Shown: positions 3,439 to 63,726 of the stretch, piece by piece
How positions within the stretch are numbered: the stretch's first letter is position 1
Layout of the letters: each line of letters begins with the position of its first letter
Notes under the pieces: model-generated
Told to the model about the DNA's origin: nothing
The model's database searches: none
What the model saw: only the letters and a program-made list of their open reading frames with translations
Origin: a bacterium
Lineage (GTDB): Bacteria > Margulisbacteria > WOR-1 > O2-12-FULL-45-9 > XYB2-FULL-48-7
Assembly: GCA_043812655.1 (NCBI GenBank)
Contig: JBDRLW010000008.1
Span: 3,198 to 67,197 of the forward strand
Length of the DNA stretch: 64,000 nucleotides
Reading direction: 5' to 3'
Made by a program: the position numbers and the translations under genes

Positions 3439-4310
3439 TCTTCTTTTTATATTTCCTGCAATTTCTTTTTCGGTTGATTTTCTTACTGCCGCCAAAACTG
3501 GCTATTATTCTCATGAACCTAGCGGGCGAGGCCACTTATCAGATCGCTTGCCGGACCCCGATCAGAAAAACAGTTGCTAATAATTTTTCTTTGGTTTTCC
3601 CCAATATTAAGATAACCAATACAGATGTCTTGGCAAAAAAGACACTTCACAACATCGCCTACTCTATTTTTGAGCTCCTGTGCATGCCATTCTTAACCCC
3701 CTATCATGTTTCCCTCATCAGCCAAATAATTGGCCGGGAAAATATTGAGGCCGGATTAAAACACGGCAAAGGGGTTTTACTGCTCATGATGCATACCGGT
3801 AATTATGAGATCACTCCGGTCATTTTAACTTCGCAGGGATACAAGATTAACTCAATTTTAAAAGCCACCAATGACCCGATGTTCAAATTCCTTAACAAAA
3901 CTCGTGGCCATAAGGGGGCAAAGATAATTAATGTCCTGGAATCAAATATGTACAGCGAAGCCTTAAAAGTTCTAAAGCAAAATGAGATCGTCGGCTTGCT
4001 GATCGATACCGGCGCCCTTGAAGGCAGACATGAAATGCTCCCCTTTCTCGGAAGAAAAGTCCCAGTGGCGACCGGCTGGCTGACTTTAGCCGAAAGGTCT
4101 AAAGCCGCGGTTATTCCCGGCTACTCAAAACGCGAGGGAGAGAAACTTATCTATTATTTCAGCGAACCGCTCCAGGTCTCTCGTGATAACCGGGAAGCAA
4201 CGATCGAAAAAGTCCGCCAATTCTACGAAGAGCTTATCAAAAACAATCCTGAACAATGGGCGATCTTCTTGAATGAATATGAAGTCAAAAGGATGGTGGC
4301 AGGGAAATGA
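3435..4310 (+). CDS. Lipid A biosynthesis late acyltransferase (LpxL/LpxM-like LPLAT family)
   Basis: HTGNYE (HX4D/E acyltransferase motif) and an N-terminal TM helix. ATGA overlap with the msbA stop. Confidence 0.65.
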   Translation: MIFFLYFLQFLFRLIFLLPPKLAIILMNLAGEATYQIACRTPIRKTVANNFSLVFPNIKITNTDVLAKKTLHNIAYSIFELLCMPFLTPYHVSLISQIIGRENIEAGLKHGKGVLLLMMHTGNYEITPVILTSQGYKINSILKATNDPMFKFLNKTRGHKGAKIINVLESNMYSEALKVLKQNEIVGLLIDTGALEGRHEMLPFLGRKVPVATGWLTLAERSKAAVIPGYSKREGEKLIYYFSEPLQVSRDNREATIEKVRQFYEELIKNNPEQWAIFLNEYEVKRMVAGK

Positions 4311-5965
4311 ACCGTAAAAACATCTTAATATTAATCGCTATGGCAGTTTGTTTATACTTTTTCAAACTCGGCAGTTTCTCATTGTACGACGCGGCGGAGA
4401 CGACTTACGGCGAATTCGTTAAAAACATGCTGGGGATGAAAGATTGGCTGACATTCCATTACAACGGACAGATAATCTTTGATAAGCCCCCGCTCTATTA
4501 TTGGTTCGCGGTCATCTTTTCTAAGTTGATCGGGTTCAATGAATGGGCCATGCGCCTCCCTGCTGCTATCTCCGGGCTCCTAACCGTAATCGTCACCTAT
4601 CTCCTCGGAAAAACATTTTACAATAAACAGGTTGGATTCCTTTCCGGCATAATTGTGATGACCGCTTTCCAATTTCTCGTCCAATCGCGGATCGCGGAAT
4701 TAGATGTTGTCCTCACCCTCCTTATGACGTCGGCAATTCTCTGTTTCTACTTGGGTTACACCAGCGGGGAGAAAAAATATTATACGTTAAGCTATGTCCC
4801 TATGGCCCTAGCCGTTTTGATCAAAGGGATCCTTGGCGTTGCCCTCCCCGGCTGCGCGATCTTTCTTTTTCTGTTGATCAAAGGAGAATTAAAGATCCTA
4901 AAAGAGATGCGGATCCTCTCTGGGATCGTAATCATCACCTTGATCGGCCTCCCCTGGTACCTGGCAGAATATCTCATTCATGGTCAAGTTTTTCTTGATT
5001 TTGCCTTGGGTTTTCTTTTCCTTTCCCGGTTCCAAGGCGCGGTTTGCGGCCATACCGGCCCTTGGTATTATTATTTCCTCGCTTTAATTTTAGGTTTTGC
5101 TCCCTGGTCGCAATTCATTCCGTTCGCTTTCTGGCGAGCATATAAAGAAGTTTCTTCTCCCAACTCCCAACTCCGAACTCCAATGCTTCTTTCCCTTTGC
5201 TTTGTTATCCCCGCCTTTATCGTCTTTTCGGTCGCTAAAACCAAGATACCTAACTACATCCTCCCCCTTTATCCTTTTCTGGCCATCATGGTGGGGAAGT
5301 TGTGGGCTGAAGTTTTATCGGAGCCTGAGAATAAATTCTCGGCTCCTCAAGAAAGCAAAACAAGAATTAATTCTCGTTTTGATAAAAATGGAACCGCGAA
5401 TTTATTCGCAGGTTCCTACGGAATAACATTATCCAACATCCTTTTTGCCGTTGTCATCGCCCTAATTTTCATTGGTTGTATCATGATCGCTAATTCCAAT
5501 TATCCAACACAATATATATCCCTACTCCCTAGCCTCTACACCCTAGCGGCTATCTTAGTCCTTGGCGGCGTGATCTCAATTACCGCTTATTTTCTAAAGA
5601 AATATACTCTTTCTTTTGCCGCTATCCCAACAATGGTTTTTATCATCACTTTGATCTTGACTGTCTGGGCCCTGCCCGAAGTTGAAAACTTTAAGGGAGC
5701 TAAAGAACTGGGAAAAGAATTAAATATTGTTATTAAACCAAATCAAATTATCGCCGCTTACAATGTCGGCAATCGCCCGAGTGTTGTTCTTCACAGCCCA
5801 AAGCCAGTTAAGTTCTTGGAGACCGAAAAGGAATTATCCGTTTATATTAATCATAAAAAAGGTTACGTGTTTACATTGGTTGAAGAATATGAAAAAATGA
5901 AGGAAAGATTGCCAGCCAGGACCAAGGTTTTGGCTAAAAAAGGCGACCTTTTAATATTATATTAA
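4307..5965 (+). CDS. GT83/PMT_2 family membrane glycosyltransferase (ArnT-like), paralog 1
   Basis: Polytopic membrane protein with N-terminal YDAAETTYGEFV...DKPPLYYWF, as in ArnT / dolichyl-phosphate-mannose transferases. Carries two in-frame repeat inserts (5159-5188 and 5321-5418). Confidence 0.7.
   Translation: MNRKNILILIAMAVCLYFFKLGSFSLYDAAETTYGEFVKNMLGMKDWLTFHYNGQIIFDKPPLYYWFAVIFSKLIGFNEWAMRLPAAISGLLTVIVTYLLGKTFYNKQVGFLSGIIVMTAFQFLVQSRIAELDVVLTLLMTSAILCFYLGYTSGEKKYYTLSYVPMALAVLIKGILGVALPGCAIFLFLLIKGELKILKEMRILSGIVIITLIGLPWYLAEYLIHGQVFLDFALGFLFLSRFQGAVCGHTGPWYYYFLALILGFAPWSQFIPFAFWRAYKEVSSPNSQLRTPMLLSLCFVIPAFIVFSVAKTKIPNYILPLYPFLAIMVGKLWAEVLSEPENKFSAPQESKTRINSRFDKNGTANLFAGSYGITLSNILFAVVIALIFIGCIMIANSNYPTQYISLLPSLYTLAAILVLGGVISITAYFLKKYTLSFAAIPTMVFIITLILTVWALPEVENFKGAKELGKELNIVIKPNQIIAAYNVGNRPSVVLHSPKPVKFLETEKELSVYINHKKGYVFTLVEEYEKMKERLPARTKVLAKKGDLLILY
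5159..5188. repeat. R3 repeat (tcttctcccaactcc-naactcc-naactcc) in frame in GT83 paralog 1
   Basis: Encodes SSPNSQLRTP. Confidence 0.7.
5321..5418. repeat. R5 double-hairpin repeat in frame in GT83 paralog 1
   Basis: GGAGCCtGAGAATaaaTTCTCGGCTCC...GGAACCGCGAATttaTTCGCAGGTTCC encodes SEPENKFSAPQESKTRINSRFDKNGTANLFAGS. Confidence 0.7.
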
Positions 5966-5966
5966 T

Positions 5967-6683
5967 ATGAATAAATTAGATTTATCAGTTTCTATTCCGA
6001 CCTACAACGAAGCCAAGAACATTGAAACGATGATCATTCGTGTCCATGATGCTTTGCGCGCCCACGGGATAAATGAAGAGATCATTATTGTTGACGACAG
6101 CTCGCCCGATGGGACTGCAGCACTGGCCGAAAAAATGTCCAAAGATTATCCGGTTAGAGTTTATGTTAGGACCAAACGCGAAGGCCCCGGTCCCGCCATT
6201 ATGGATGGGATCAGACTGGCGCAAGCTCCGGTTTCCTGCACCATGGATGGAGACCTAAGCCACCCCCCCGAAGCGCTCCCTGAAATGTATAAGCTGATCA
6301 AATCAGGCCAAGCGCCCCTCGTTATCGGTAGCCGCCATGTTAAGGGAGGCGGCACTTCCAAGTGGATCTGGTATCGCAAATTTTTCTCCTGGGGAGCCCG
6401 GCAATTAGGTCGGCTGCTGACCCCGGTTCACGATTTAACCTCTGGATTTTTCATGTTCGACAAAAAGATCTTGCAAGGAGCAACGATCGATCCTATCGGT
6501 TGCAAAGTTGGACTTGAATTGATGGTCAAAGGGAAACACAAGGGCAAAGTCATCGAATATCCAATTATCTTCTCCGAACGGGCGGCCGGTGAAAGTAAAA
6601 TGGGTTGGCGTGAAACCAAACACTATCTTTACCATCTTGGCTCTCTCCTGCTTTGGAAAACGGCTAACATTTTCAAAAGATGA
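5967..6683 (+). CDS. GT2 polyprenyl-phosphate sugar transferase (ArnC/DPM1-like)
   Basis: GT-A fold, DxD (VDDSSPDG), about 238 aa. Classic partner that makes the lipid-linked donor for GT83 enzymes. Confidence 0.7.
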   Translation: MNKLDLSVSIPTYNEAKNIETMIIRVHDALRAHGINEEIIIVDDSSPDGTAALAEKMSKDYPVRVYVRTKREGPGPAIMDGIRLAQAPVSCTMDGDLSHPPEALPEMYKLIKSGQAPLVIGSRHVKGGGTSKWIWYRKFFSWGARQLGRLLTPVHDLTSGFFMFDKKILQGATIDPIGCKVGLELMVKGKHKGKVIEYPIIFSERAAGESKMGWRETKHYLYHLGSLLLWKTANIFKR

Positions 6684-8689
6684 TCGATCTTTCGGTTATT
6701 ATCGTCAATTATAATGGCGAGAAATATTTAAAGGACTGCCTCTCCTCGATCTATCAAAGTACCAAGAATATTAATTTCGAGATAATCTTTGTTGATAACC
6801 ACTCAGCCGATAATTCTGTCGACATTATTAAAACAAATTTCCCTAAAGTCATTATTATTGAAAACAAGAATAATCACGGGTTTTGCCGAGCTAATAACCA
6901 GGGTCTGAAGATATATCAAGGAAGATATGCCCTACTATTAAATAACGATACGATCGTAAAAGATGGCGCGCTAGACCAGCTGGTGCAGTTTATGGATAAC
7001 AATCCTGGCGCTGGGGCTTGCGGCCCCCTCCTCTCTAATCCCGATGGTTCACCACAACATCAAGGCGGAATATTTAATAAGAAGTTCTGGTTATCCTCTT
7101 CTCCAACTAAAGTCTCTTATGTCATCGGAGCGGCGCTAATGGTTAGGCGGGAAGTGGTTGATAAGGTCGGCGGGATGGACGAGAATTTCTTTTTTTCTAA
7201 TGATGACCTTGATTGGTGTTTGCGGATCAAAAAGGCCAGTCACGACGGGCAAGCCGGTTGGGATATTTATTTTGTTCCCCAGGCAAAAATAATGCATTAT
7301 GGCGGTTTTACGATCAATAAATTCAATCAAAAGTTATTTGTCGAAGGTTTCAGAGGCGGCCTCTATTTCTGCCGCAAACATTACGGCTTTTTAGCCTACC
7401 AATTGTATCGATCATTGCTGATCATAGGGATGATAATCGCTATTCCCCTTACTTTGATACTTTATCCATTTTTAAAACATAAAAAGAAATTAAATGCCTT
7501 TATTGAAATTTTGATGATTACCTTACAGCCCTCACCCCTGTCCCCTCTCCCAAAGGGAGAGGGGTGGAAAAACATTTTGTTAGTGAGCAACGGCCACGCG
7601 GAAGATCTAGCCGCTGCGGCAATTGGGGGAACACTGCAAACAGCAAGTCCAGATCTTTCTATTAGAGCCCTTCCTTTAGTCGGACTAGGGCAAGCCTATG
7701 ATAAAAAAGGAATAATAAATCTTGGCCTAAAGAAAATCTTACCCAGCGGTGGTTTTGCCAAAGAAGGGATATTCCATTTTTTAAATGATCTCCGCTCTGG
7801 CTTTTTTAGCCTCTTTCATCAACAGATCAAGATCCTGAGGCAAGAAGCTAAAAAAACTGATCTAGTCGTCGCTGTCGGAGACGTCTGGGTGGTGGCTTTA
7901 TGCGGCCTATTTGTTAAAAAACCTTTGATCTTCATCGATGGTCCAAAGTCAGTCAAGATCGAAGGTTATTATAAATTAGAACTTTGGCTGCTAAAGAAAT
8001 TCTGCCAAAAAGTTATCGTCCAAGACCCCGAAACAGCTGACTACTTACAGAAAAAAGGGATCCCCGCTTTTTATCTTGGTAGCTGGGTAATGGATTATGT
8101 CCCCGTCACTGGCGATAACCTTGGAATTGATCCGGGCAAAACAGTGATCGGGATTCTTCCGGGAACGCGTGAGGAAGCCTATCCTAACTTAAAATTGATC
8201 CTCGAAGTCTTTGAACTCTTGTCTCAATCTGACAAGAACCTGGTCGGAACGATTGCCTCTGTCTTAAATAAAGATAAAATTAAAATCCCTGGTTGGCAAT
8301 TAGAAGATAATAAACTAACTTCGAATTCTGGCGCTACGGCTTATCTTATCGAAGGCAAATTCGGCGATGTCTGTGTCCGCTCAAAACTTATCATCGGCTT
8401 GGCCGGGATCGCCAACGAACAAGCCGTCGCTTTTGGCAAACCAGTCGTCTGCTTCCCTGGTAGCGGAGCCCAAACGACTCTCCGCCGCTGGCAAGAAATC
8501 CACAAGATAACCAGCGATTCGATGCTGATTGTGCAAGGAAATACTGTAGAAAAAGCGGCCAAGATAATGAGATTATTGAAGGATGAAAAACGATTAGCAG
8601 TGATGGGAAAGATCGGAAAAGAGAGTAAACCAATGTGGGGCGGAGTTGAGAGGATCGCTAACCTGGTCAAAACTACTATCTCAAATTAA
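6680..8689 (+). CDS. Fused GT2 glycosyltransferase (N-terminal) plus GT19 LpxB-like domain (C-terminal); a repeat element lies at the junction
   Basis: N-terminal 250 aa are GT2-like (IIVNYNGEKYL, DNHSAD). C-terminal 380 aa are LpxB-like (LLVSNGHAEDLAAAAIGG, PGTREE). The R1 repeat at 7528-7568 encodes the linker QPSPLSPLPKGEGW. Confidence 0.55.
   Translation: MIDLSVIIVNYNGEKYLKDCLSSIYQSTKNINFEIIFVDNHSADNSVDIIKTNFPKVIIIENKNNHGFCRANNQGLKIYQGRYALLLNNDTIVKDGALDQLVQFMDNNPGAGACGPLLSNPDGSPQHQGGIFNKKFWLSSSPTKVSYVIGAALMVRREVVDKVGGMDENFFFSNDDLDWCLRIKKASHDGQAGWDIYFVPQAKIMHYGGFTINKFNQKLFVEGFRGGLYFCRKHYGFLAYQLYRSLLIIGMIIAIPLTLILYPFLKHKKKLNAFIEILMITLQPSPLSPLPKGEGWKNILLVSNGHAEDLAAAAIGGTLQTASPDLSIRALPLVGLGQAYDKKGIINLGLKKILPSGGFAKEGIFHFLNDLRSGFFSLFHQQIKILRQEAKKTDLVVAVGDVWVVALCGLFVKKPLIFIDGPKSVKIEGYYKLELWLLKKFCQKVIVQDPETADYLQKKGIPAFYLGSWVMDYVPVTGDNLGIDPGKTVIGILPGTREEAYPNLKLILEVFELLSQSDKNLVGTIASVLNKDKIKIPGWQLEDNKLTSNSGATAYLIEGKFGDVCVRSKLIIGLAGIANEQAVAFGKPVVCFPGSGAQTTLRRWQEIHKITSDSMLIVQGNTVEKAAKIMRLLKDEKRLAVMGKIGKESKPMWGGVERIANLVKTTISN
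7528..7568. repeat. R1 G-rich palindromic element copy (gccctcacccc...CCCTCTCCCaaaGGGAGAGGG) inside a CDS, in frame
   Basis: Seen directly. Shares box and hairpin motifs with eight other copies. Confidence 0.8.
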
Positions 8690-16998: not shown

Positions 16999-18537
16999 AT
17001 GAACATTTGGCTATTGTTAGCAATTACAACTTTGTTACGGCTCTGTCTGGCGTCGCTTTTCCCTATCACCGCCGATGAATCATACTATTGGCTCTGGTCA
17101 AAGCATTTAAGCCTTTCTTATGTCGATCATCCGCCAATGGTGGCGGTCGTTAATTGGCTTTTCACCCACGGGACAGAAAACCTGATCATGCTCCGTCTGG
17201 GGACGGCAATAATTTCATTTTTGGTTAGCCTGCTCATCTATTTCCTAGCGAAAGAAGTTTTCAATGAAAAAGTCGCTTTCTGGTCGGTGGTCCTGTTCCA
17301 AATCCTTCCCCACTTCGTCGTCATCTGGTTGACGCAATTTGTCGAACTCCCGCTCGCTTTATTCTGGACTTTATCATTATTGATTCTGGCAAAAATATTC
17401 AATTTTTCCCATCCATCTTCTCCGAACCCCCAAATCCGAACTCCTAACTTATTATGGCTCGCGCTCGGCCTCACCATCGGCCTGGGTTCCCTTAGCAAAT
17501 ACACCATGTTCCTCTTCTGGCCGTGTCTTGGATTATTCTTTATTCTCTCTCCCGAAAACCGTTTCTGGCTTAAGCGAAAAGAACTTTACCTATGCCTTCT
17601 CCTAAGCCTATGCTTTTTTTCTCCAGTATTGATTTGGAATAACAACCATGCCTGGGCATCGTTTCTCTTCCATGGCAGTAAAGCTAGTGGAGATGCGTGG
17701 GGAACAAATTTTCTCCCCTTTGTTGGCGATCAATTAGTACACTTTACGCCTTTCCTTATTTTTACTCTTTTTGCTGTCGCTAAATCCTTCTTTCCAACTA
17801 ACAAACTAATGGCTCGACAAGCCCTTCGGCAAGCTCAGGGCAACATCGAGCGGAGTCGAGATGCTCGCCATCCCAGCCATCCCGAGCTCCGTCGAGGGAC
17901 AAACCAACAAACCAACCAACTCCCCCTCCTCCTCGCCTCGTTCTCCTTCCCCATCCTCTGCCTTTTCCTTTTCCTAAGCCTTAAGGTCAAGGTCTGGGCC
18001 CACTGGCCGGAGATCGGTTATATTGCGGCCATTCCCTTAACAATTAATTACTTAATTGAAAAGAATAAATCATTAAATAAATTCATTACTTGGATTGCAG
18101 GCTTCACCGGTTTAGTTCTAATTATTCTATTTTGGGTCACGCCAGCCATTCTCTTACATCAGAAAGATTACCTGGCTAATTATCAATTAACCAATTCAAT
18201 CCCCAAAGAGTATAAGCTCTTTGCCAAAACCAATGTCTCTTCGTCTCTCCTTGAGTTTTATACCAAGCGACCGGTTTATATGGCCACCGGTTTTTTAAAA
18301 GAGAACCATCTCTGGGGCGAAAAACAGTATGAACTCTGGGGAATTCCCAATTTAGTTAAAGGGGAAACTGTCATATATTATGGTGATGATACCCCTTTCT
18401 TTCAAGAAAAAGCCAAAACTAATTTCAGAAGCATTACAGAATTACCGGTTAAATTGTATTTAATTGAGGATTATATTACTAATAATTATAAGATGTTTAA
18501 ACTAGAAGGTTATAAAAGATCCGCTTCTCACCCTTAG
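16999..18537 (+). CDS. GT83/PMT_2 family membrane glycosyltransferase (ArnT-like), paralog 5
   Basis: ADESYYWLWSKHLSLSYVDHPPM motif. Carries in-frame repeat inserts R3 (17417-17448) and R4 (17803-17915). Confidence 0.65.
   Translation: MNIWLLLAITTLLRLCLASLFPITADESYYWLWSKHLSLSYVDHPPMVAVVNWLFTHGTENLIMLRLGTAIISFLVSLLIYFLAKEVFNEKVAFWSVVLFQILPHFVVIWLTQFVELPLALFWTLSLLILAKIFNFSHPSSPNPQIRTPNLLWLALGLTIGLGSLSKYTMFLFWPCLGLFFILSPENRFWLKRKELYLCLLLSLCFFSPVLIWNNNHAWASFLFHGSKASGDAWGTNFLPFVGDQLVHFTPFLIFTLFAVAKSFFPTNKLMARQALRQAQGNIERSRDARHPSHPELRRGTNQQTNQLPLLLASFSFPILCLFLFLSLKVKVWAHWPEIGYIAAIPLTINYLIEKNKSLNKFITWIAGFTGLVLIILFWVTPAILLHQKDYLANYQLTNSIPKEYKLFAKTNVSSSLLEFYTKRPVYMATGFLKENHLWGEKQYELWGIPNLVKGETVIYYGDDTPFFQEKAKTNFRSITELPVKLYLIEDYITNNYKMFKLEGYKRSASHP
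17417..17448. repeat. R3 repeat in frame in GT83 paralog 5
   Basis: tcttctccgaacccccaaatccgaactcctaac encodes SSPNPQIRTPN. Confidence 0.7.
17803..17915. repeat. R4 repeat (long form, about 110 bp) in frame in GT83 paralog 5
   Basis: aacaaactaATGGCTCGACAAGC...TCGCCATCCCAGCCATCCCGAGCTCCGTCGAGGGAcaaaccaacaaacc with a 41-bp internal segment absent from the other copy. Confidence 0.75.
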
Positions 18538-18543
18538 CTTTTT

Positions 18544-18672
18544 GCCCTCATCCGCTGGCGCTAAAGACTCCCCCTTCTCCCATAGGGAGAAGGGAACACA
18601 GCAAGACTAGACGTGCAAATTACCCTCTCCCTTTGGGAGAGGGGGAAAGGTTAACGTTGGCTGGGTGAGGGC
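18544..18672. repeat. R1 composite MITE-like element between convergent genes
   Basis: gccctcatccgctggcgc box, two CCYTCTCCC-NNN-GGGAGARGG hairpins, terminal gggtgagggc. Confidence 0.8.
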
Positions 18673-18679
18673 TAAAGGC

Positions 18680-19588
18680 TTAAATATTCCCGGTATAAAC
18701 GTATTTCAATCCGGCTTCCAACCCAATCTCCTTGGCCTTAATAACGGTTTCCCTCGGAGTTGCCGGCCGGTCAAGCATTTTATAAGTGGGGTAAAAAGCC
18801 GAAACGTGCCAAGGAACATCATCGCCAAGATCGTTCTTAATAAAGCTGGCAATTTCCGTTAATTCTTCATTTGAATCATTCAAACCGGGAATAATCAAAG
18901 TCGTCAGCTCGATCCAGATCTTAAGATTCCTCATTAATTTAATCGTGTCTAAAACCGGCTGCAGTCGCCCACCACAATATTTTTTATAGTAATCGTCACT
19001 GAACGACTTCAGATCAATATTCGCCGCGTCAAGATATGGAGCGATCATTTTAGTCGGTTCCGGATTAGAATAGCCATTGGTCACAAAAATATTTTTCAGG
19101 CCCTTCGCGTTAGCAAGTTTAGCGCAATCATAGGCAAATTCAAAAAATATTGTCGGTTCGGTATAAGTATAGGAGATGCTCTGGCAATCGTTATCAATCG
19201 CTGCCTTAACAATTTCTTCCGGCGTTGTCTCTATGCCGCCAATTCCCCCCTCATCCCATCGTCCCCTCGTCTCATCGTCCTTTCGTCCTTTCGTTGCTTT
19301 CGAGATCCCAAAGTTTTGGCAGAAATCACAGCGGAAATTACAACCAACCGTTGCAATTGAATATGACCTTGTTCCCGGCAAAAAATGGTTGAGGGGCTTC
19401 TTCTCGATCGGATCAATAGCGGCTGAAATAACTTTACCGTAAACTAAGCTGTATAAAACACCCTTTTGGTTTTCCCTAACCCCACAAATCCCTCGTTTCC
19501 CATCAGCAATCAAACAATTATGCGGACAAAGTAAACACTGGACCCTGGACTCTGGACCCTGGACCCTATAAAAAAGTGCTTCCCTCAT
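18680..19588 (-). CDS. AmmeMemoRadiSam-system radical SAM enzyme (AmrS-like)
   Basis: VQCLLCPHNC N-terminal Cys cluster plus GCNFRCDFCQN radical SAM motif. Contains two in-frame inserts: R2 at the N-terminus and a 20-aa low-complexity insert. Confidence 0.7.
   Translation of the reverse strand: MREALFYRVQGPESRVQCLLCPHNCLIADGKRGICGVRENQKGVLYSLVYGKVISAAIDPIEKKPLNHFLPGTRSYSIATVGCNFRCDFCQNFGISKATKGRKDDETRGRWDEGGIGGIETTPEEIVKAAIDNDCQSISYTYTEPTIFFEFAYDCAKLANAKGLKNIFVTNGYSNPEPTKMIAPYLDAANIDLKSFSDDYYKKYCGGRLQPVLDTIKLMRNLKIWIELTTLIIPGLNDSNEELTEIASFIKNDLGDDVPWHVSAFYPTYKMLDRPATPRETVIKAKEIGLEAGLKYVYTGNI
19539..19568. repeat. R2 repeat (CTGGACCCTGGAnyCTGGACCCTGG) in frame in the AmrS N-terminus
   Basis: Encodes YRVQGPESRVQ, directly before the conserved CLLCPHNC. 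Confidence 0.7.
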
Positions 19589-20871
19589 TCACAGCCGCAG
19601 TTGCCGCCGCATTCGCACTCGCCGGCAAATTGGTCAAAAACTTTATCAAAAGCGATCGGTGATTGCTCCGCCGTCTTCATGTTTTTGAGAAGACCCAAGC
19701 CCGATTTAAGTTCTTCTTCACCAATGATATAAACATATTCCGCCTTCATTCGATCCGCACTTTTCATCTGTGCTTTGAGTGACTTGCCAAGATAATCAAG
19801 ATCGGCCGATAAACCTAAACTCCGCGCCTTCGTCACCAAATTAAACCCTAACTTCCTTGCTTCGTCTCCAAGGGTAGCAATATATAATTGTAATTTACCT
19901 TCATTTTCCATTTTTAATTTTTCATTTTTCATTATTTCCACGACTCGCTCAAGCCCCACCGCAAACCCGATCGCCGGAACTTTTTTCCCGCCCAGCTCTT
20001 CAACCAGGTTATCGTAGCGTCCCCCACCGCAGACAGCATTTTGCGCTCCCAAACTCTTGGAAACAATTTCAAAGGCCGTTTTGGTGTAATAATCTAAACC
20101 ACGGACCAAGCGCTTGTTTATCATGTGTTTTACTAACAAACTATCCAACAAACTAACTAACCGACTAAAATGCGTCTTACATTCTTCGCATAAATGATCG
20201 ACAGAAGCTGGAGCCTTTTCCAAATATTTCTGGCAATGCGCTTCTTTGCAGTCAAGGATCCTTAACGGATTTAACTCCACCCGCTCCTGACAATCGGCAC
20301 ACATGTCTTTAATATGTTCTTTAAAGTATTTTTGAATCGCGGCGCGATATCCCGGCTGGCAAACGGAACAGCCGACCGAATTAAGATTAACCGATAAGTC
20401 TTTCAGCCCGATCATTGAAAACAAATTAACAGCTAATTGGATCACTTCGGCATCAAGGAGCGGATCGGTCGAACCAAAAACCTCAACTCCCGCCTGGTGG
20501 AATTGCCGCTGGCGTCCGGCTTGCGGCCGTTCATAACGGAACATCGGTCCGATATAATAAAGCTTTGTTAAATTATCGGTTGAGATCAAATTGTTTTCTA
20601 AAGCCGCCCGAACAACCGGAGCTGTCTCTTCTGGACGCAGGGTTAAACTCCTCCCCTTACGGTCAGGGAAAGTGTACATCTCTTTTTTAACAATATCGGT
20701 AGTCGTGCCAATTGAGCGGGTAAATAGGTCGGTTGATTCAAATATAGGGGTGCGGATCTCCTGATAATTGTAAACGCCAAAGAGCGACCGGCAGCTCTCT
20801 TCCACAAACTGCCAAAGGGGCGTTTCGGCGGGAAGAATATCTTTTGTGCCACGGGGTGCTGTATATTTCAT
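19585..20871 (-). CDS. hisS: Histidine--tRNA ligase
   Basis: Class II aaRS motifs and MKYTAPRGTKDILP as in the HisS N-terminus. The long ORF is trimmed to the ATG at 20871 because the upstream 100 aa overlap thiF and are not HisS-like. Confidence 0.85.
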   Translation of the reverse strand: MKYTAPRGTKDILPAETPLWQFVEESCRSLFGVYNYQEIRTPIFESTDLFTRSIGTTTDIVKKEMYTFPDRKGRSLTLRPEETAPVVRAALENNLISTDNLTKLYYIGPMFRYERPQAGRQRQFHQAGVEVFGSTDPLLDAEVIQLAVNLFSMIGLKDLSVNLNSVGCSVCQPGYRAAIQKYFKEHIKDMCADCQERVELNPLRILDCKEAHCQKYLEKAPASVDHLCEECKTHFSRLVSLLDSLLVKHMINKRLVRGLDYYTKTAFEIVSKSLGAQNAVCGGGRYDNLVEELGGKKVPAIGFAVGLERVVEIMKNEKLKMENEGKLQLYIATLGDEARKLGFNLVTKARSLGLSADLDYLGKSLKAQMKSADRMKAEYVYIIGEEELKSGLGLLKNMKTAEQSPIAFDKVFDQFAGECECGGNCGCE

Positions 20872-24179: not shown

Positions 24180-24223
24180 CCACCCCCTCTCCCCCTGGGA
24201 GAGGGGGCCTGGGGGTGAGGGCT
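24180..24223. repeat. R1 element copy upstream of the TPP riboswitch
   Basis: ccctctccccctgggagaggggg hairpin plus a gggggtgagggc box. Confidence 0.75.
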
Positions 24224-24255: not shown

Positions 24256-25629
24256 ATGAAAAAACTTATAATCATATTCTCACTCATTTTTCTTAGCCTG
24301 CCGGCTTTTGCCACGTTTGAATCGGAGGTAATGCAACAATTATGGGACGTCCCAACCAAGGAAGTGAGATCAGAGATCATCAAATCCTACAAAAGAGGTC
24401 CGATCCAAGTAAATGAGATCTACTATTTTAGCCGCTCTTACAAACGCCAGCCGGTTAAGATATTTGGTTACTATTCTTATCCTGTTAATCATAAAGGTAA
24501 ACTCCCAGCCATTCTCCTCTCCCATGGTGGCGGCGGTTCAGCTAGCCTCCCCCGCTGCTTAGCTTGGTCAAAATTAGGTTATGCTGTTTTAGCGATCGAC
24601 TTGCCAGGTAAGGGTGAAAATCGAGGACGGTCACGCTCCACCGGACCAGACATGATAGTAAAGAACCTGCTCAAGACCCAGCCTGATCCTAGCTACAATT
24701 ATCTAATTCACGCGGTGGCTGCGGCCAGAAATGGGATAACTTTTTTAGCGACCAGAAAAGAAGTTGATCCGGACCGGATCGGGATGATCGGCCTTTCCTG
24801 GGGAGGGGTCCTCACCCTATTAACCAATGGCCAAGATAATCGATTAAAAGCCGCGGTCAATGTTTTTGGCGCCGGCCACATTCCCGAAGGCTGCACCTGG
24901 GATGATTGGTTTAAGTCAATGCCAGCGGTTGACAAGAATATTTGGCAGAACAATCTTGACCCGAAGAATTTCCTGGCCACCCAACATGCTCCGATCTATT
25001 TTGTCTCTGGGACCAATGATCATTGTTATTACTTAACTACTTTCCAAAAGAGCTACCAAGAAGTAACTGCCGATAAGAATTATTATTTGGTCCCCAATCT
25101 GCGCCATAAATTCCTGGATTCCCTTAGCGTCCCCGCGCTGGCTTGGTTAAAGTCAAAATTAAAGACCGGAGGAAGTTTCCCCGGGATCACCGTCATGCCG
25201 ATCACCCAAGAAGCGGATAATATCGTGGTTAATGCTAGATCTAACGGCAATAAAGTCACTCTTTACTATTCGGTTGGCGGTCCGTCCGGTTTAACAACTA
25301 ACCGTTGGAAATCGCTTCAGCCAAAAAGGACCGGACTTTATTATTCTTTTACCATCCCGACAAAATTAATTAAGCCGGAGGTCATGTATTACGTCAGCGC
25401 AAATAATAAGGACGGGGCGGCTACCTCTTCACAAGTCCAAACTATTTTCAGTGTTAAATTAAAAGACGGGACCAAAACCTACGCTCAATCATCGCCGATC
25501 AAGAAGCTGTACCAGCACGAACCACCATTCACCTTTGTTAATGGCTATGTTAGCAGCACCATCCGCTTCCTGTTCGCAAAACAGGAACAGGTCTACAAAG
25601 CCTACAATTACGATTCTATTGCGAACTAA
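24256..25629 (+). CDS. Secreted alpha/beta hydrolase (acetyl-xylan-esterase / dienelactone-hydrolase-like) with a C-terminal beta-sandwich domain
   Basis: Signal peptide MKKLIIIFSLIFLSLPAFA, HGGGGSAS oxyanion region, nucleophile elbow GLSWGG. Confidence 0.55.
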   Translation: MKKLIIIFSLIFLSLPAFATFESEVMQQLWDVPTKEVRSEIIKSYKRGPIQVNEIYYFSRSYKRQPVKIFGYYSYPVNHKGKLPAILLSHGGGGSASLPRCLAWSKLGYAVLAIDLPGKGENRGRSRSTGPDMIVKNLLKTQPDPSYNYLIHAVAAARNGITFLATRKEVDPDRIGMIGLSWGGVLTLLTNGQDNRLKAAVNVFGAGHIPEGCTWDDWFKSMPAVDKNIWQNNLDPKNFLATQHAPIYFVSGTNDHCYYLTTFQKSYQEVTADKNYYLVPNLRHKFLDSLSVPALAWLKSKLKTGGSFPGITVMPITQEADNIVVNARSNGNKVTLYYSVGGPSGLTTNRWKSLQPKRTGLYYSFTIPTKLIKPEVMYYVSANNKDGAATSSQVQTIFSVKLKDGTKTYAQSSPIKKLYQHEPPFTFVNGYVSSTIRFLFAKQEQVYKAYNYDSIAN

Positions 25630-26521
25630 ATGGCTCTTTTTTTTTAAAATCCGGCAGATAAGCGTCACTGCTTGACAAGTGCTGGATATATATATTTTGA
25701 AACCCTTTGTCCTGGGCGTGATCGACAACTTTCTCATATTCAGCCGCCGTTAATTTTCGAGCTAACTCGGGAAATTCCTTCGCCCGGTGCTGCGGACTAT
25801 ACTGCGACATCAAGCTCAACCAAATCTCAGTTGAAATACCGGCCAAAAAATCCAAGACCTTAAAGCTATCAGCAATATTATTCGGTAAAACAAGGTGTCT
25901 CACTATCAACGCTCTTCTCCCAACTCCACACTCCCGACTCCTAACTACCTGCCCCCACATCTCCCTCACCCCAACCGTTACCGTCTCAACATAATTCTCT
26001 GCCCCAGAATATTTAAACGCGTTATCATTATCAAAATATTTAATATCCGGGAGGTAAATATCAACCAGGCCGTCAAGCCTTTGCAAAAGCTCCAGCGAAT
26101 CATAACCCCCGGTATTGTAGACGATCGGCAACTCCAACCCTTCTTTTTTGGCTAGCATCAAGGCGTCTATGACCTGTGCGCCATAATGCGTTGGTGAAAC
26201 CAGGTTTATATTTTCCGCTCCCCTGTCAGCCAGATCAAGCATTATTTTAACCAGCTCATTAATCGTCACCTCGCGGCCAAGTCCTTGCTGGCTAACTTGA
26301 TAATTCTGGCAATAAACGCATTTAAGCGAACAACCGGAAAAAAAGACCGTCCCCGACCCTCTTTGGCCAGAAATTTGCGGTTCTTCACCATGATGAAGAC
26401 AATAAGAGGCAACTTTAATCTTATCACCTGCCCCGCACTTTCCCCCAAACTGACTAACAAACTTACCAACTCCCCTCTCTACCCCGCACCGATGGCCGCA
26501 TAAATTGCATTTAGTCACCAT
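25616..26521 (-). CDS. Radical SAM protein, PflX family (pyruvate-formate-lyase-activase homologue)
   Basis: CNLCGHRCGV N-terminal cluster plus CSLKCVYCQN radical SAM motif. Carries an in-frame R3 repeat insert (25913-25945). Confidence 0.6.
   Translation of the reverse strand: MVTKCNLCGHRCGVERGVGKFVSQFGGKCGAGDKIKVASYCLHHGEEPQISGQRGSGTVFFSGCSLKCVYCQNYQVSQQGLGREVTINELVKIMLDLADRGAENINLVSPTHYGAQVIDALMLAKKEGLELPIVYNTGGYDSLELLQRLDGLVDIYLPDIKYFDNDNAFKYSGAENYVETVTVGVREMWGQVVRSRECGVGRRALIVRHLVLPNNIADSFKVLDFLAGISTEIWLSLMSQYSPQHRAKEFPELARKLTAAEYEKVVDHAQDKGFQNIYIQHLSSSDAYLPDFKKKEPFSSQ
25913..25945. repeat. R3 repeat in frame (opposite orientation) in the PflX-like radical SAM gene
   Basis: tcttctcccaactccacactcccgactcctaac, translated on the minus strand as VRSRECGVGRRA. 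Confidence 0.7.
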
Positions 26522-27967: not shown

Positions 27968-28124
27968 ACCCTCACCCGCTAATGCTTAAGACTCCCCCCT
28001 CTCCCATAGGGAGAGGGTAACTCGCTTGTTTTATGTTTTATTTTTATACCCCCTCTACCTCCCTGCCTGCCGGCAGGCAGGTGGGAGAGGGGGTGCTATT
28101 GTTTGGCGTTGACGGGGGTGAGGG
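27968..28124. mobile_element. R1 composite element containing a nested R6 palindrome
   Basis: Runs accctcaccc...cccctctcccatagggagaggg...cctgcctgccggcaggcagg...gggggtgagggc, with TIR-like ends. Confidence 0.75.
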
Positions 28125-28135
28125 CTGTGAGGTTT

Positions 28136-29537
28136 TTACATCACCGGCAGGTTCGAGCTTCCCATTAAATATTCGTCTACCGCTCTGGCGGCTTTACGGC
28201 CTTCGGATATTGCCCAGACTATAAGTGATTGGCCTCGTCTCATATCACCAGCGGCAAATATTCCCTTAATGGAAGTCATATAATTTTGATTAGTTTTGAA
28301 GTTTCCCCGCTGATCAAGCTCGATCTTTAGATCAGCGATCGGTTCGGGATGTAAGAAACCTAAGGCCAGAAAAACCAGGTCGGCTTCTATCGTAAATTCA
28401 GAGTGAGGTATTTCTTTCAAATTCAGATCAACTTTTACACATTGCAATTTCTGGACCCTGGATCCTGGACCCTGGAATTCTTTTGTCGCAATCGACCACT
28501 GCCGTTCACAGCCTTCTTCATGACTGCTGGAAGTCTTAAGGATTAGCGGATACTTTGGCCATGGCTGGTCAACCGGCCGAGTTTCGCTTGGCTGCGGCAA
28601 GAGTTCTATTTGTACCACACAACTGGCCCCTTGGCGCTGAGCGGTTCCTACACAGTCTGAACCTGTATCACCCCCACCGATCACCACCACTTTTTTTCCT
28701 TTAGCATCAATTAATGAGTTCGTTGGTATTTTTTCTCCGGCAATTGTTTTATTGGCTTGGGTCAGATATTCCATCGCAAAGTAAACACCTTTGAGTTCCC
28801 GGCCGGGAGCTTTTAAGTCGCGGGGAATTCTGGATCCTCCGGCAAAGACAATTGCCTCAAATTCTTTTTGGAGCTTAGAAACAGGATAATCATCACCTAT
28901 CTTAATTTTAGTTTTAAAAGTGATCCCCTCTTCTTCCCAGATCTTGGTCCGACGATCGATGACTTTCTTTTCCAGCTTAAAATCAGGGATGCCGTAGCGC
29001 ATGATCCCGCCCAGTTTTTCGTCTTTTTCAAATACTGTAACACTATGGCCCGCTTGATTTAATTGCGCGGCGCAAGACAGTCCAGCTGGGCCAGAGCCAA
29101 CAACCGCTACTTTTTTACCGGTCGTAACTTTAGGCTGTCTGGCCTTGATCTGGCCGTGATCGAACATTTCTTCAACTATCCCCAATTCATTTTCCCTGAT
29201 CGTCACCGGGTCATCGTTGATCCCCAAGACACAAGAAAATTCGCACGGCGCCGGGCAAACTCGGCCGGTGATCTCTGGCAGATTATTGGTCGCGTCAAGG
29301 AGTTCCCAAGCTCTTTCCCACGATTTTACCGACGTCAGGTCATTCCACTCCGGGATATAATTACCAAGAGGACAGCCGCCATGGCAGAATGGGGTCCCGC
29401 AATCCATACAGCGGGTGGCCTGTTCCGCCGTCTCGTCTTCCGACCTAAGTTTAAAAACCCGGTCGAAATCTTTTACCCGCTCGCAAACCGGGCGGTAAGC
29501 GGTTTTGGTCCTTTTTATTTTTATGAACCCCTTTGGA

Positions 29538-29545
<8 letters not shown>
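28136..29545 (-). CDS. gltD: Glutamate synthase (NADPH) small subunit
   Basis: N-terminal Fe-S Cys motifs and GSGPAG FAD/NAD fold. Immediately downstream of gltB. Carries an in-frame R2 repeat insert. Confidence 0.85.
28450..28474. repeat. R2 repeat in frame in gltD
   Basis: ctggaccctggatcctggaccctgg encodes FQGPGSRVQ. Confidence 0.7.
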
Positions 29546-41704: not shown

Positions 41705-42194
41705 TGAGCGCCTCCTTTATGGCTTCAATTTCGCCTTGCAATGTAGAATCATAATAGCGGCCGTCTTCCCATTTTAATTTTAAGCCGCCAATGATCTTGG
41801 GATCGACTTTGAAGCGATATCTTATTTTGTCGGGCTTTATAGCTTTAAAAACATTTTCGTTCAGCAGCGGGACGGCCGACGTTACTTCCAGGTATTCGGT
41901 GGCTGTTTTCTTGGAAACAACTTCCGAATATTTATTGGCCAGCCAAGAGAGCCTTTCCAGCAATTCCTCCCGCAACAGCAAATTAAAAAGGTCGCGAAAA
42001 ACCCGCGAAGCGGCAGGGAAAAGATCGGCAAGAACGGTCCGCTTATTTTTCTCCGATACGCCATTGTCAACAAAAAAATACTTAAGATCAAGATCGCTGT
42101 TAAGGGCGTAGGAAAAACGGTAAAGCTCGCGCTCCAGCTGGAGCGCGTCTTTTCCCGCTAGATCATATAATTTTTCGACATCGATCTCTTTCAT
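41697..42194 (-). CDS. atpH: F-type ATP synthase delta subunit (OSCP)
   Basis: Operon position and size (165 aa). Confidence 0.7.
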
Positions 42195-42673
42195 GGTTTA
42201 ACCTGGGCGATACTCTCCTCTATTAAACGGCGGTTATCTTCGGGCGTTATTACCCGGCGCAAAACTTTTCCGGTCGCCATGGCCACCAACTCCACGACTT
42301 CCTGCTTGGCGGAAGCAACGATCTTGTCTTTTTCCCGTTCCAGCTCAAGCCGCGCTTTTTCCATTATTTTATCGGCTTCCCGGCTGGCTGCGGTAATGAT
42401 CCCTTCCTTGGTCTGGCGGCCTTCTTCTTTTGCCCTCTCTACCATCTGGTCAGCGCTTTGGTGGGCTTGCGCATATTTTTTCTTTTGGTCTTCTAGCAAT
42501 TCGGCTGTTTTCTTTTGGTTAGCTTCGGCCAAAGCGATCGAATCGGCGATCATTTTTTCCCTCATCGCCAAAAAATTCAGGAGGGGTGGCAATGCTACTT
42601 TATAAAGCAAGGCCACCAACATCCCAAAAGAGACCGTTGTCCAAAATATCAATCCAGTTTCAATTTCGAGCAT
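42191..42673 (-). CDS. atpF: F-type ATP synthase b subunit
   Basis: Single N-terminal TM helix plus a long charged helix. Confidence 0.75.
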   Translation of the reverse strand: MLEIETGLIFWTTVSFGMLVALLYKVALPPLLNFLAMREKMIADSIALAEANQKKTAELLEDQKKKYAQAHQSADQMVERAKEEGRQTKEGIITAASREADKIMEKARLELEREKDKIVASAKQEVVELVAMATGKVLRRVITPEDNRRLIEESIAQVKP

Positions 42674-42679
42674 TGTTCC

Positions 42680-42937
<258 letters not shown>

Positions 42938-43669
42938 TTAATGGTTTTCTTCCAACGCGGTCGCGATATAAAGCGATGACAAATAAGCAAAAATAAACGC
43001 CTGGATGAACGCGACAAAAACTTCAAATATTGAGAAAATAAAATCACCAAGCAAAGGCAAAGGAATGACCAAATAGCTTTTAAAAATAAAGATCAAAGAC
43101 AAAAGGATCATCATTAAAGCATGGCCAGCAAACATATTGGCAAACAAGCGGAGCGCCAGGGAAAAAGGCTTGGCTAATTGGCTAAGAAACTCGATCGGAA
43201 CCATTAAGACTTGGACAAAGAACGGAATATCACAAGGGACAAGTGATCTGGCGTAACTGACCAGGCCGCGCTTTTTAATGCCGCTTAAATGGACAACAAG
43301 GAAGACGATGACCGCCAGCGTTCCCGTCACATTAATATTGGCGGTCACGCCGGAAAATATTGGGATCAACCCGGCCAGGTTGCAAAACAGGACAAAGAAA
43401 AAAAGAGCGATAATGAAAGGGAGCCACTTATCTTTTTCTGTCCCTAATTGTTCTCCCATTTCATTCCGCAGAAATATGACCATCGTTTCAGCCAGGTTTT
43501 GGGCGGTCCCCGGAACAAGTTTTAGCGAGCAGGTAGCTAAAAAAAAGAAGAATAAAACTGATATTCCCGCTACCCATAGAGTTATTACTCCATTAGTGAT
43601 CGAAATATCCACGCCAAACAATGAAAGAGGTATTATTGTGCGTTGATAAAGATTTTCAAGTACGTTCAT
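42938..43669 (-). CDS. atpB: F-type ATP synthase a subunit
   Basis: Polytopic protein with the conserved Arg region (LALRLFANMFAGH). Confidence 0.85.
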   Translation of the reverse strand: MNVLENLYQRTIIPLSLFGVDISITNGVITLWVAGISVLFFFFLATCSLKLVPGTAQNLAETMVIFLRNEMGEQLGTEKDKWLPFIIALFFFVLFCNLAGLIPIFSGVTANINVTGTLAVIVFLVVHLSGIKKRGLVSYARSLVPCDIPFFVQVLMVPIEFLSQLAKPFSLALRLFANMFAGHALMMILLSLIFIFKSYLVIPLPLLGDFIFSIFEVFVAFIQAFIFAYLSSLYIATALEENH

Positions 43670-46313: not shown

Positions 46314-47039
46314 TTATTGTAGGCCGAATATTTCGGGCAGGGTCCGTTTGTGTTCGCTAGCAGCTTGACGTTTTCTTATTAGTTCGATCTTATCTTTGGC
46401 AATCCCTTTGTCATTACCGGAAAGGAACTGGTCGAGTTCATCGTAAGTGATCCCCATCTCACTTTCATCTGTCTGCCCTGCCCAAAGACCGGCGCTCGGC
46501 GCTTTATCAATAATTTCTTTTGTGACGCCTAATTCTTGAGCCAAAGCCCTCACGTCTTTCTTTAAAAGATTCCCTAACGGCAAAAGGTCAACTCCCCCAT
46601 CGCCATATTTCGTAAAATAGCCCATTTCCAGTTCCGACCTGTTCCCCGTCCCGATCACTAAATAATTTAGTTGGCTGGCAAAATAATAAAGGGTCGTCAT
46701 CCGCAGTCTTGGTTTAATGTTGGCGATACTTAGGTCTTTCTGACCGCTATATGGCTTGCCTTCAAAGACACCAAACAATGAGTCAAATGAAGTAGACAGG
46801 TCAATCTCTTTGATTTTCAGATCAATTCGTTGCGCAAATTCTTTGGCATGATCAATATCGACCGCTAAACTGTGGCAAGGAAGAATTAACGCTAAAGTAT
46901 TTTGAGGAAAAACTTTTTTGCAAAGGAGCGCCACCACCGCAGAGTCAATTCCGCCGGAAAGTCCTAAAATACAACCTTTGGCTCCGGCTGCCTCAACCTT
47001 TTGTTTGATCCAATTAGAAATTTTTTCTGATCTATTCAT
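46314..47039 (-). CDS. nadE: NH3-dependent NAD+ synthetase
   Basis: GLSGGIDSAVV PP-loop, 241 aa. Confidence 0.85.
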   Translation of the reverse strand: MNRSEKISNWIKQKVEAAGAKGCILGLSGGIDSAVVALLCKKVFPQNTLALILPCHSLAVDIDHAKEFAQRIDLKIKEIDLSTSFDSLFGVFEGKPYSGQKDLSIANIKPRLRMTTLYYFASQLNYLVIGTGNRSELEMGYFTKYGDGGVDLLPLGNLLKKDVRALAQELGVTKEIIDKAPSAGLWAGQTDESEMGITYDELDQFLSGNDKGIAKDKIELIRKRQAASEHKRTLPEIFGLQ

Positions 47040-48465: not shown

Positions 48466-48591
48466 CCCTCACCCAGTACCGCTGAACCTTTCCCCCTCTC
48501 CCAAAGGGAGAGGGTAATTCCCTTTTCCTCTCCGCGTTTTACCTTCTCCCTCTGGGAGAAGGGGGCGTCTTTTGCGCCAGCGGATGAGGGC
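48466..48591. repeat. R1 composite element in the nfnA-nfnB intergenic space
   Basis: accctcaccc box, ccctctcccaaagggagaggg and ccttctccctctgggagaaggggg hairpins, gcgccagcggatgagggc box (reverse complement of the box at 18544). Confidence 0.8.
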
Positions 48592-63670: not shown

Positions 63671-63726
63671 GCCCTCACCCCGTCCGCCTACGGCGGACTG
63701 CCCCTCTCCCATAGGGAGAGGGGCGG
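63671..63726. repeat. R1 element copy
   Basis: gccctcaccccgtccgcctacggcggactgcccctctcccatagggagaggggcgg. Confidence 0.75.

Follow-up and report, generated by a model that had tools for sequence, protein, structure and literature searches.

AmrS, the radical S-adenosylmethionine (SAM) enzyme of the AmmeMemoRadiSam system, is described by the profile TIGR04337, and low-complexity inserts of the kind that slippage leaves in the surface loops of proteins usually have units of 3n nt. Amongst repeats of other periods, the short tandemly repeated repetitive (STRR) sequences of cyanobacteria, the sister group of the Margulisbacteria, are heptamers. Heptameric simple sequence repeats (SSRs) of Nostoc (GGGGAYT) and Xanthomonas (GGGAATC), for which a G-quadruplex (G4) has been proposed, are in excess between genes and in deficit within coding sequence (Rehm et al., 2015; PMC4692102), and in Beggiatoaceae TAACTGA is reported as an abundant intergenic direct repeat with a proposed post-transcriptional role (PMC4679880). 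Here we analyse an AmrS gene in 64,000 nt of margulisbacterial DNA (contig JBDRLW010000008.1; this whole stretch is hereafter called the window), in which a degenerate octamer array encodes part of the loop that follows the radical SAM cluster motif and a heptamer array encodes the residues directly before the N-terminal Cys motif. At a probability of roughly two in three, we read it as the gene of a functional enzyme whose loop was lengthened by 11 aa through the local slippage of an octamer that has since decayed, a neutral by-product of a lineage-wide tendency as opposed to a re-engineering of the Fe-S site.

As an event, the loop insert belongs to a type already known, in which one lineage expands a loop by low-complexity sequence. 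It has in common with slippage-derived loop inserts its lineage-specific distribution, biased composition, predicted disorder, indel-tolerant loop and decaying tandem repeat, but the units here are of 7-8 nt, so that survival in frame needs multi-unit or compensated events. The heptamers of Nostoc and Xanthomonas resemble the arrays described below in having 7-nt units, unit families shared within a genome, about four units per array and strand asymmetry; they differ in that the published ones are mainly intergenic, whereas the present arrays are genic, in frame and often length-neutral. Set beside these and the STRR heptamers, the N-terminal AmrS array is likewise a 7-nt tandem of about four units, with a unit that recurs at 28451, whilst the loop array has an 8-nt unit, carries no G4 motif and is unique in the window. 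The TAACTGA repeats of Beggiatoaceae are also heptanucleotide direct repeats with many copies per genome, but they are intergenic and of one unit sequence, whereas those described here are coding, of many units and apparently locally seeded.

The 302-aa product of the gene scores 341.4 bits against TIGR04337 (curated cutoff 220, E = 4.8e-102), with residues 11-302 matching profile positions 7-286 of 349, and the Radical_SAM domain alone was found in it by Pfam. Judged by this score and by its motifs the protein is a member of the AmrS family, as an earlier note on this DNA, made from the letters alone, had already held. It shares with the family the CX3CX2C motif, the N-terminal CxxCxHxC...C motif and all invariant columns, and differs from it in a loop of 44 instead of 33 aa and in the lack of the Cys-rich tail, of about 45 aa, at the C-terminus.

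Loop length was measured in 117 homologs, starting at C-x3-C-x2-C-[QH]-N and ending at the anchor S-I-S-Y-T-Y-T-E-P. The modal value is 33 aa (88 of the 117) and the family ranges from 29 to 47 aa, so that the window AmrS, at 44 aa, shows a net gain of 11 aa. The peptide CDFCQNFGIS-KATKGRKDDETRGRWDEGGIGGIE-TTPEEIVKAA and the DNA quoted for it in the earlier note are both present in the sequence, and the segment is indeed longer than in orthologs, although by 11 aa and not by the 20 aa first given. We infer that the added stretch comprises residues 97-110 (Table 1), thus beginning 7 and ending 20 residues past the third cluster Cys. The next residues, W111-D112-E113, resemble native R-D/E-E codons (AGGGATGA) and are the likely seed of the array, and a comparison with unexpanded orthologs suggests that they and the following GGIGGIETTPEE correspond to native R-D/E-E...I-x-G-x-E-x-T-P-E-E. 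The closest ortholog, P0002 (78% identity by BLASTP, 82% in the alignment), has a loop of the modal 33 aa encoded by DNA without periodicity, and all Desulfobacterota orthologs have near-modal loops (33-34 aa), also without periodicity. As the insert is in no distant ortholog and the loop of P0002 is modal, the lineage specificity proposed earlier withstood the ortholog alignment, and the insert is real, recent and lineage-specific, if smaller than first claimed. Further long loops occur in P0070 (47 aa), P0081 (44 aa), P0009 (41 aa), and P0047 and P0075 (38 aa each); these share no sequence with the window loop. The linker behind the cluster is an indel-tolerant site family-wide.

That this segment is encoded by a degenerate tandem repeat was confirmed by Tandem Repeats Finder (TRF) and by autocorrelation of the loop DNA, both of which give a period of 8/16 in place of the 9-nt unit, (tcgtccyyt)n, that had been suggested. 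Three TRF rows cover the array, with periods of 8 (4.4 copies, 77% matches, 19254-19288), 16 (2.1 copies, 88% matches, score 54, 19247-19280) and again 8 (2.5 perfect copies, 19275-19294), and autocorrelation reaches 0.61 at lag 8 and at most 0.44 at other lags. On the sense strand the units read, in order, AAAGCAAC GAAAGGAC GAAAGGAC GATGAGAC GAGGGGAC GATGGGAT GAGGGGGG, with GANNGGAC as the consensus of the 8-nt unit. Period 8/16 arrays with a TRF score of at least 40 occur at only 0.17 per dinucleotide-shuffled window.

The invariant columns of a 120-sequence alignment are all kept, including C18, C21, H23, C25, C35, C83, C87 and C90, and the N-terminal Cys motif amongst them would provide putative metal ligands. 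AlphaFold2, run with this alignment, gave a model with a mean predicted local distance difference test (pLDDT) score of 90.6 and a predicted TM-score (pTM) of 0.90, in which pLDDT falls below 50 only at residues 101-111 (GRKDDETRGRW), within the insert; the added loop residues are probably disordered. The closest solved folds to this model are those of pyruvate formate-lyase activating enzyme (PFL-AE; PDB 3cb8, 3c8f and 8fo0), with a Foldseek E of 5e-16 and a target-normalised TM of 0.81 for 3cb8, and with a sequence match to PFL-AE at E = 2e-5. The insert occupies the equivalent of the PFL-AE linker that joins the cluster-binding loop to helix alpha-1, but PFL-AE is 16-17% identical to the window protein, has no Cys-rich hairpin domain at its N-terminus and spans with about 14 residues a stretch for which the window AmrS uses about 30. 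Nonsynonymous and synonymous divergence from P0002 (dN = 0.107, dS = 1.675, ratio ~0.06) indicates strong purifying selection on the gene. Because the Cys ligands are all kept and dN/dS is this low against the closest ortholog, the enzyme is probably functional. The proposal that it had been modified twice near its Fe-S sites was not sustained, given intact Cys ligands and invariant columns, extra residues that are predicted to be disordered, and purifying selection, and the special targeting of the loop that this proposal implied is at odds with the family-wide variation in loop length and with similar arrays in the loops of neighbouring genes. The Fe-S ligands are untouched, and as an enzyme feature the finding is ordinary.

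The N-terminal heptamer array (Table 1) starts 21 nt past the AmrS start codon, and a pattern search of the window for CTGGACC returned six hits where 0.21 were expected. Here too the repeat reported in the earlier note is real, but the 'R2 insert' built on it is not an insertion in length, since F-Y and the first Cys are 10 aa apart here, whilst the modal spacing, shared by 100 of 115 homologs, is 9 aa. AlphaFold2 places residues 7-18 in a confident beta-hairpin (strands 7-10 and 15-18, pLDDT > 90), and in this model R8-Q17 is the normal beta-hairpin of the AmrS family with one extra residue. A terminator-like hit at 19540-19559 is self-pairing of the heptamer array, at background frequency.

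Arrays recur at the same two sites in relatives, as seen when the DNA of close AmrS orthologs was compared there. At the N-terminal site, P0075 carries (AGGGTCC)x4.9, P0002 (AACTTCA)x4.3, P0004 and P0033 CGGGTCN-type units, P0008 a period-14 array of AAGTCCA/AGGTCCG and P0025 (AGCCAGGGTCAAGT)x2; at the loop site, P0004 carries (GGGACGA)x4.7, P0075 (AGGGGCC)x4.3, P0008 (GGAACCAGGAACTG)x2.1 and P0009 a G-rich tract with a period of about 8. The modal-length orthologs P0043, L084 and L085 show no periodicity at the AmrS sites. A neighbour-joining tree, built with the two array sites masked and not bootstrapped, divides the non-modal variants amongst at least three separate clades with modal ones interspersed, and the array events are therefore recurrent. 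Unexpanded orthologs read AAG/AGG-GTC-CA(A/G)-TGT, that is (K/R)-V-Q-C, up to the first Cys codon (AAGGTCCAATGT or AAGGTCAAGTGT), and CCC-AGG-GAT-GA(A/G), that is P-R-D-E, in the loop, where P0025 carries the same AGGGATGA. Since the N-terminal arrays and the window loop array extend 5' from these codons, the likely seeds, and resemble them, local slipped-strand or dislocation events are favoured, and from their sequences most AmrS arrays look seeded from adjacent native codons.

Under such local slippage, about six head-to-tail copies of an 8-nt unit would have arisen upstream of native AGG-GAT-GAG-like codons (P-R-D/E-E motif), most likely because slipped strands misaligned, or the template was dislocated, at short quasi-repeats while the DNA was being replicated, and the array would then have decayed, with survival only of those outcomes that were in frame and structurally tolerated. 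The product would be a charged, Gly-rich and probably disordered loop in the surface linker between the CX3CX2C motif and helix alpha-1, of neutral or near-neutral effect. The N-terminal GGTCCAG array may represent the same type of event, seeded by the (K/R)-V-Q-C codons (AGG GTC CAG TGT), in which the hairpin would have been overwritten and its length kept. Both arrays would then be instances of a tendency, in a Margulisbacteria/Saganbacteria-like lineage, for period-7/8 arrays to gather in unconstrained loops.

This tendency is visible in array counts, for which TRF was used with scores of at least 30 (periods 7 and 8) or at least 40 (periods 7/14 and 8/16) and with dinucleotide shuffles as the control. 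At the lower threshold the window holds 10 period-7 and seven period-8 arrays, against shuffle means of 1.5 (maximum 5) and 1.6 (maximum 4) respectively, and at the higher one it holds four arrays of period 7/14 and one of period 8/16, against means of 0.24 and 0.17; period-7/8 arrays are about 10-fold over shuffles, with a weaker enrichment of periods that are multiples of 3. Individual weak arrays with TRF scores of 30-35 (e.g. at 47266 and 37465) may be due to chance, because the shuffles give about 1.5 per period. At scores of at least 40, related loci of a Margulisbacteria-like clade have 14 arrays of period 7/14 per 64 kb and none of period 8/16, compared with 2.0 and 0.42 per 64 kb in about 0.9 Mb from other phyla. 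Overall, we put the excess of period-7/8 arrays in related loci over other phyla at about 4-fold.

The period-7/8 arrays of the window lie within genes, amongst them AmrS, HisS, PMT2 and a PflX-like gene. The HisS linker site (Table 1) also carries arrays in relatives, (TGAAAAATGAATAA)x2.9 at 1260-1300 of L084 and (AAAGTCA)x4.7 at 2660-2692 of the Saganbacteria locus L004. Compared with the related contigs L164 and L165, the PMT2-type glycosyltransferase (16999-18537) has three extra segments, one of +11 aa (SSPNPQIRTPN) from CTCCGAA-type heptamers at 17420-17447, one of +33 aa (FPTNKLMARQALRQAQGNIERSRDARHPSHPEL) and one of +5 aa (TNQQTNQ) from (ACAAACCA)x2.8 at 17899-17920, and the PflX-like radical SAM gene (25616-26521) is 8-10 aa longer than in L164. 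CTCCCAA-type arrays are found at 5157-5184 in a PMT2-like gene (4307-5965), at 17420-17447 in PMT2 and at 25917-25946 in the PflX-like gene, and in all three the C-rich strand is the plus strand, whatever the orientation of the gene. Two GltD-like paralogs (28136-29545 and 47036-48451) carry arrays at non-homologous positions, the first (CTGGACC)x3.7 and the second a weak (TTTGAAG)x3.6 at 47266-47289, with no length change between the paralogs. Across the window the plus strand is the C-rich one in 11 of 14 arrays, and the plus-strand GC skew is uniformly negative (-0.11 overall, -0.04 to -0.16 per 8 kb), so that array orientation follows the replication-strand bias. As loops are frequently overwritten without being lengthened, templated misalignment fits better than simple addition of units. 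In the literature searched, repeats of this kind are not described for Margulisbacteria.

Several points weigh against local slippage followed by decay. A single step of +8 or +7 nt would shift the frame of a gene that is under strong purifying selection; to stay in frame would thus take jumps of +24 nt, indels that compensate each other or templated substitutions that leave the length unchanged, none of which is directly observed. Identical units in unrelated genes (CTGGACC at 19538 and 28451; the CTCCCAA type at 5157, 17420 and 25917) are unexplained by local seeding, and this sharing hints at dispersal or at a sequence preference. The N-terminal arrays of the window AmrS and P0075 are identical at 30 of 33 nt, and synonymous sites are saturated between the window AmrS and the three orthologs tested, a set that does not include P0075; the match fits independent expansion from one seed, and also selection on DNA or RNA. 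The enrichment in related loci is partly circular, as seven of the 15 strong arrays lie within AmrS, although about nine strong arrays per 64 kb are still found with AmrS left out. Finally, as the insert is not covered by the alignment, its low pLDDT is weak evidence that it is disordered.

On a broader and less likely view, a distinctive process in Margulisbacteria and Saganbacteria, perhaps driven by a mechanism of its own, might repeatedly rewrite the same unconstrained loops (the AmrS N-terminal hairpin and post-cluster linker, HisS, PMT2 and PflX) into arrays of about four 7-8-nt units that belong to a small number of shared families (GGTCCAG, CTCCCAA, AACTTCA and AAATGAA), often without a change in length; it could be the coding counterpart of cyanobacterial STRR sequences, with a mechanism shared across Cyanobacteria and Margulisbacteria.

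The sharing of units is also what speaks for a dispersed or mobile mini-repeat, in which genome-wide heptamer families of STRR type or short dispersed repeat (SDR) type would insert into or convert sites. CTGGACC is present in two genes and the CTCCCAA type in three, the latter in a constant orientation relative to the DNA strand, AACTTCA is found in L002, L004 and the window, and P0075 has a GGNCCAG unit at both AmrS sites. We nonetheless consider such an element unlikely, since the octamer array lacks a second copy in the window, the units of most AmrS arrays and of the HisS arrays of the window and L084 match neighbouring native codons, several arrays are length-neutral and so not insertion-like, and neither terminal repeats nor target duplications were seen. 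Selection for the insert itself, with a charged, Gly-rich loop beside the [4Fe-4S]/SAM site altering the docking of a partner (AmrA/AmrB or substrate) or shielding the cluster, would agree with its place in a linker that, in radical SAM folds, is wrapped around the cluster, and with the independent lengthening of this loop in several lineages. It is a doubtful explanation, however: the long loops of the family differ in sequence and length, the insert is absent from P0002 and predicted to be disordered, its composition is a mere translation of a G/A-rich repeat, and the same process strikes unrelated genes.

Heptanucleotide repeats are included in the simple-repeat catalogue of Haemophilus influenzae, in which such repeats mediate phase variation (PMC2651432). 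A contingency locus in which AmrS is turned on and off as single units are gained or lost would suit units of 7 and 8 nt in coding sequence, where a single-unit change shifts the frame, and an N-terminal tract only 21 nt into the gene. The tracts are short and decayed, though, with a longest perfect run of 2.5 octamers and 77% matches over the full octamer array, and with 4.3 copies at 91% matches in the heptamer array, where a typical contingency tract has at least 5-6 identical units. Moreover, AmrS is conserved, of housekeeping type and under purifying selection, it is translationally coupled to HisS and is neither a surface nor a restriction-modification gene, and a similar array lies in the essential HisS, where switching off would be lethal; phase variation is accordingly improbable. 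Regulation of AmrS expression by a DNA or mRNA G4 formed by G-rich sense-strand arrays has in its favour canonical G3+N1-7 x4 motifs in the arrays of P0075 (both sites), P0004 and P0009 and array lengths that cluster near four units as in Rehm et al. (2015; PMC4692102), but it is very improbable here, as neither window AmrS array has the canonical motif and the same sites also hold A/T-rich arrays (AACTTCA, AAATGAA). An assembly or sequencing artefact in a metagenome-assembled genome, suggested by the presence of the exact protein on a single contig only, is scarcely credible in view of a continuous reading frame with conserved residues in the same frame on either side and of analogous arrays at the same sites in independent assemblies of relatives.

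Table 1. Coordinates in the window of the AmrS gene, its motifs and arrays, and of two arrays in other genes.
Feature	Coordinates	Strand	Content	Basis
AmrS gene (AmmeMemoRadiSam-system radical SAM enzyme)	18680..19588	-	302 aa	TIGR04337, Pfam, Foldseek, gene order
Radical SAM cluster motif	19319..19342	-	C83-x3-C87-x2-C90 (CNFRCDFC), intact	Invariant columns (nearly invariant in alignment A2)
N-terminal Cys motif	19484..19537	-	C18-x2-C21-x-H23-x-C25...C35, intact	Invariant or nearly invariant columns, alignments A1 and A2
Degenerate period-8 array	19245..19301	-	57 nt in about 7 units, of which one has 9 nt; encodes K97-G115 (KATKGRKDDETRGRWDEGG)	TRF, autocorrelation, unit parse
Putative inserted stretch	19259..19300	-	Residues 97-110 (KATKGRKDDETRGR) for about 3 native residues (Q-x-P)	Alignments A1 and A2, loop lengths, DNA of P0025, P0002 and P0004, pLDDT
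N-terminal heptamer array	19538..19567	-	x4.3 of GGTCCAG on the sense strand (CTGGACC on the plus strand); encodes R8-Q17 (RVQGPESRVQ), directly before C18	TRF score 53, 91% matches
HisS linker array	19900..19938	-	AAATGAA (sense), x5.4, after GLERVVEIM; +1 aa compared with L164/L165	TRF, alignment
Second CTGGACC array	28451..28476	-	x3.7, in GltD-like oxidoreductase gene 28136-29545, encoding FQGPGSRVQ	

The AmrS start codon and the HisS stop codon overlap by 4 nt (ATGA), and the gene order HisS-AmrS-PMT2 is common to L164 and L165. NCBI holds one entry for the identical AmrS protein, from a metagenome-assembled genome on a single 122-kb contig; relatives of the protein are annotated as Margulisiibacteriota, WOR-1 or Saganbacteria at 66-78% identity, and one metagenome scan and a genome scan yielded mainly distant Desulfobacterota orthologs and few close relatives. 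A crude motif search of the window for the AMMECR1-like and Memo-like partners AmrA and AmrB (RGC[IV]G and PHAG[YWFH]), which is a weak test, found none. A literature search found nothing on the mechanism of AmrS, and a search of both strands of the whole window returned no Rfam family at gathering score.

The segment missing from the C-terminus corresponds to profile positions ~287-349 (CxxC...CxxC), and the open reading frame (ORF) stops after YTGNI. Twelve of 115 homologs, P0002 included, have this short form, at least four of them on contigs of 19-97 kb, and the short form therefore characterises a subfamily and does not stem from a recent truncation; truncation by palindromes downstream of the gene, which resemble repetitive extragenic palindromic (REP) sequences, was likewise ruled out, as P0002 and other lineages are also short. 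The REP-like palindrome, CCCTCTCCC-NNN-GGGAGAGGG, has eight copies in the window against 0.02 expected (7543-7563, 18573-18593, 18623-18643, 24185-24205, 27997-28017, 48494-48514, 48542-48562 and 63702-63722). Two of these are within the 142-nt spacer of the convergent PMT2 and AmrS genes, and one is within the GT2 ORF at 6680-8689, where it is read as PSPLSPLPKGEGW.

The HisS C-terminus (19585-19630) has an unusual Cys-rich tail, FAGECECGGNCGCE, which is a lineage trait since the tails of L164 and L165 are similar (SCGCSDDGCRCE/A). The top TRF score in the window (61) belongs to a period-21 array, (ATCCCCATTCCCACTGCCGCA)x2.3, at 42840-42887, between the ORFs at 42191-42673 and 42938-43669; no ORF of at least 100 aa runs across it.

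By itself the AmrS insert is of little weight, as one more indel-tolerant radical SAM loop in an enzyme whose linker tolerates 11 extra residues. The lineage-wide, site-recurrent coding arrays of 7-8 nt are a modestly interesting lead, and more so than the insert. They are a natural experiment in how non-triplet repeats arise without loss of frame, they show where proteins tolerate rewriting, and they bear on whether STRR-type repeats of cyanobacteria have an older origin. They are also a warning for annotation, in that what looks like a low-complexity 'insert' in one of these metagenome-assembled genomes is a by-product of mutation and not a new domain.

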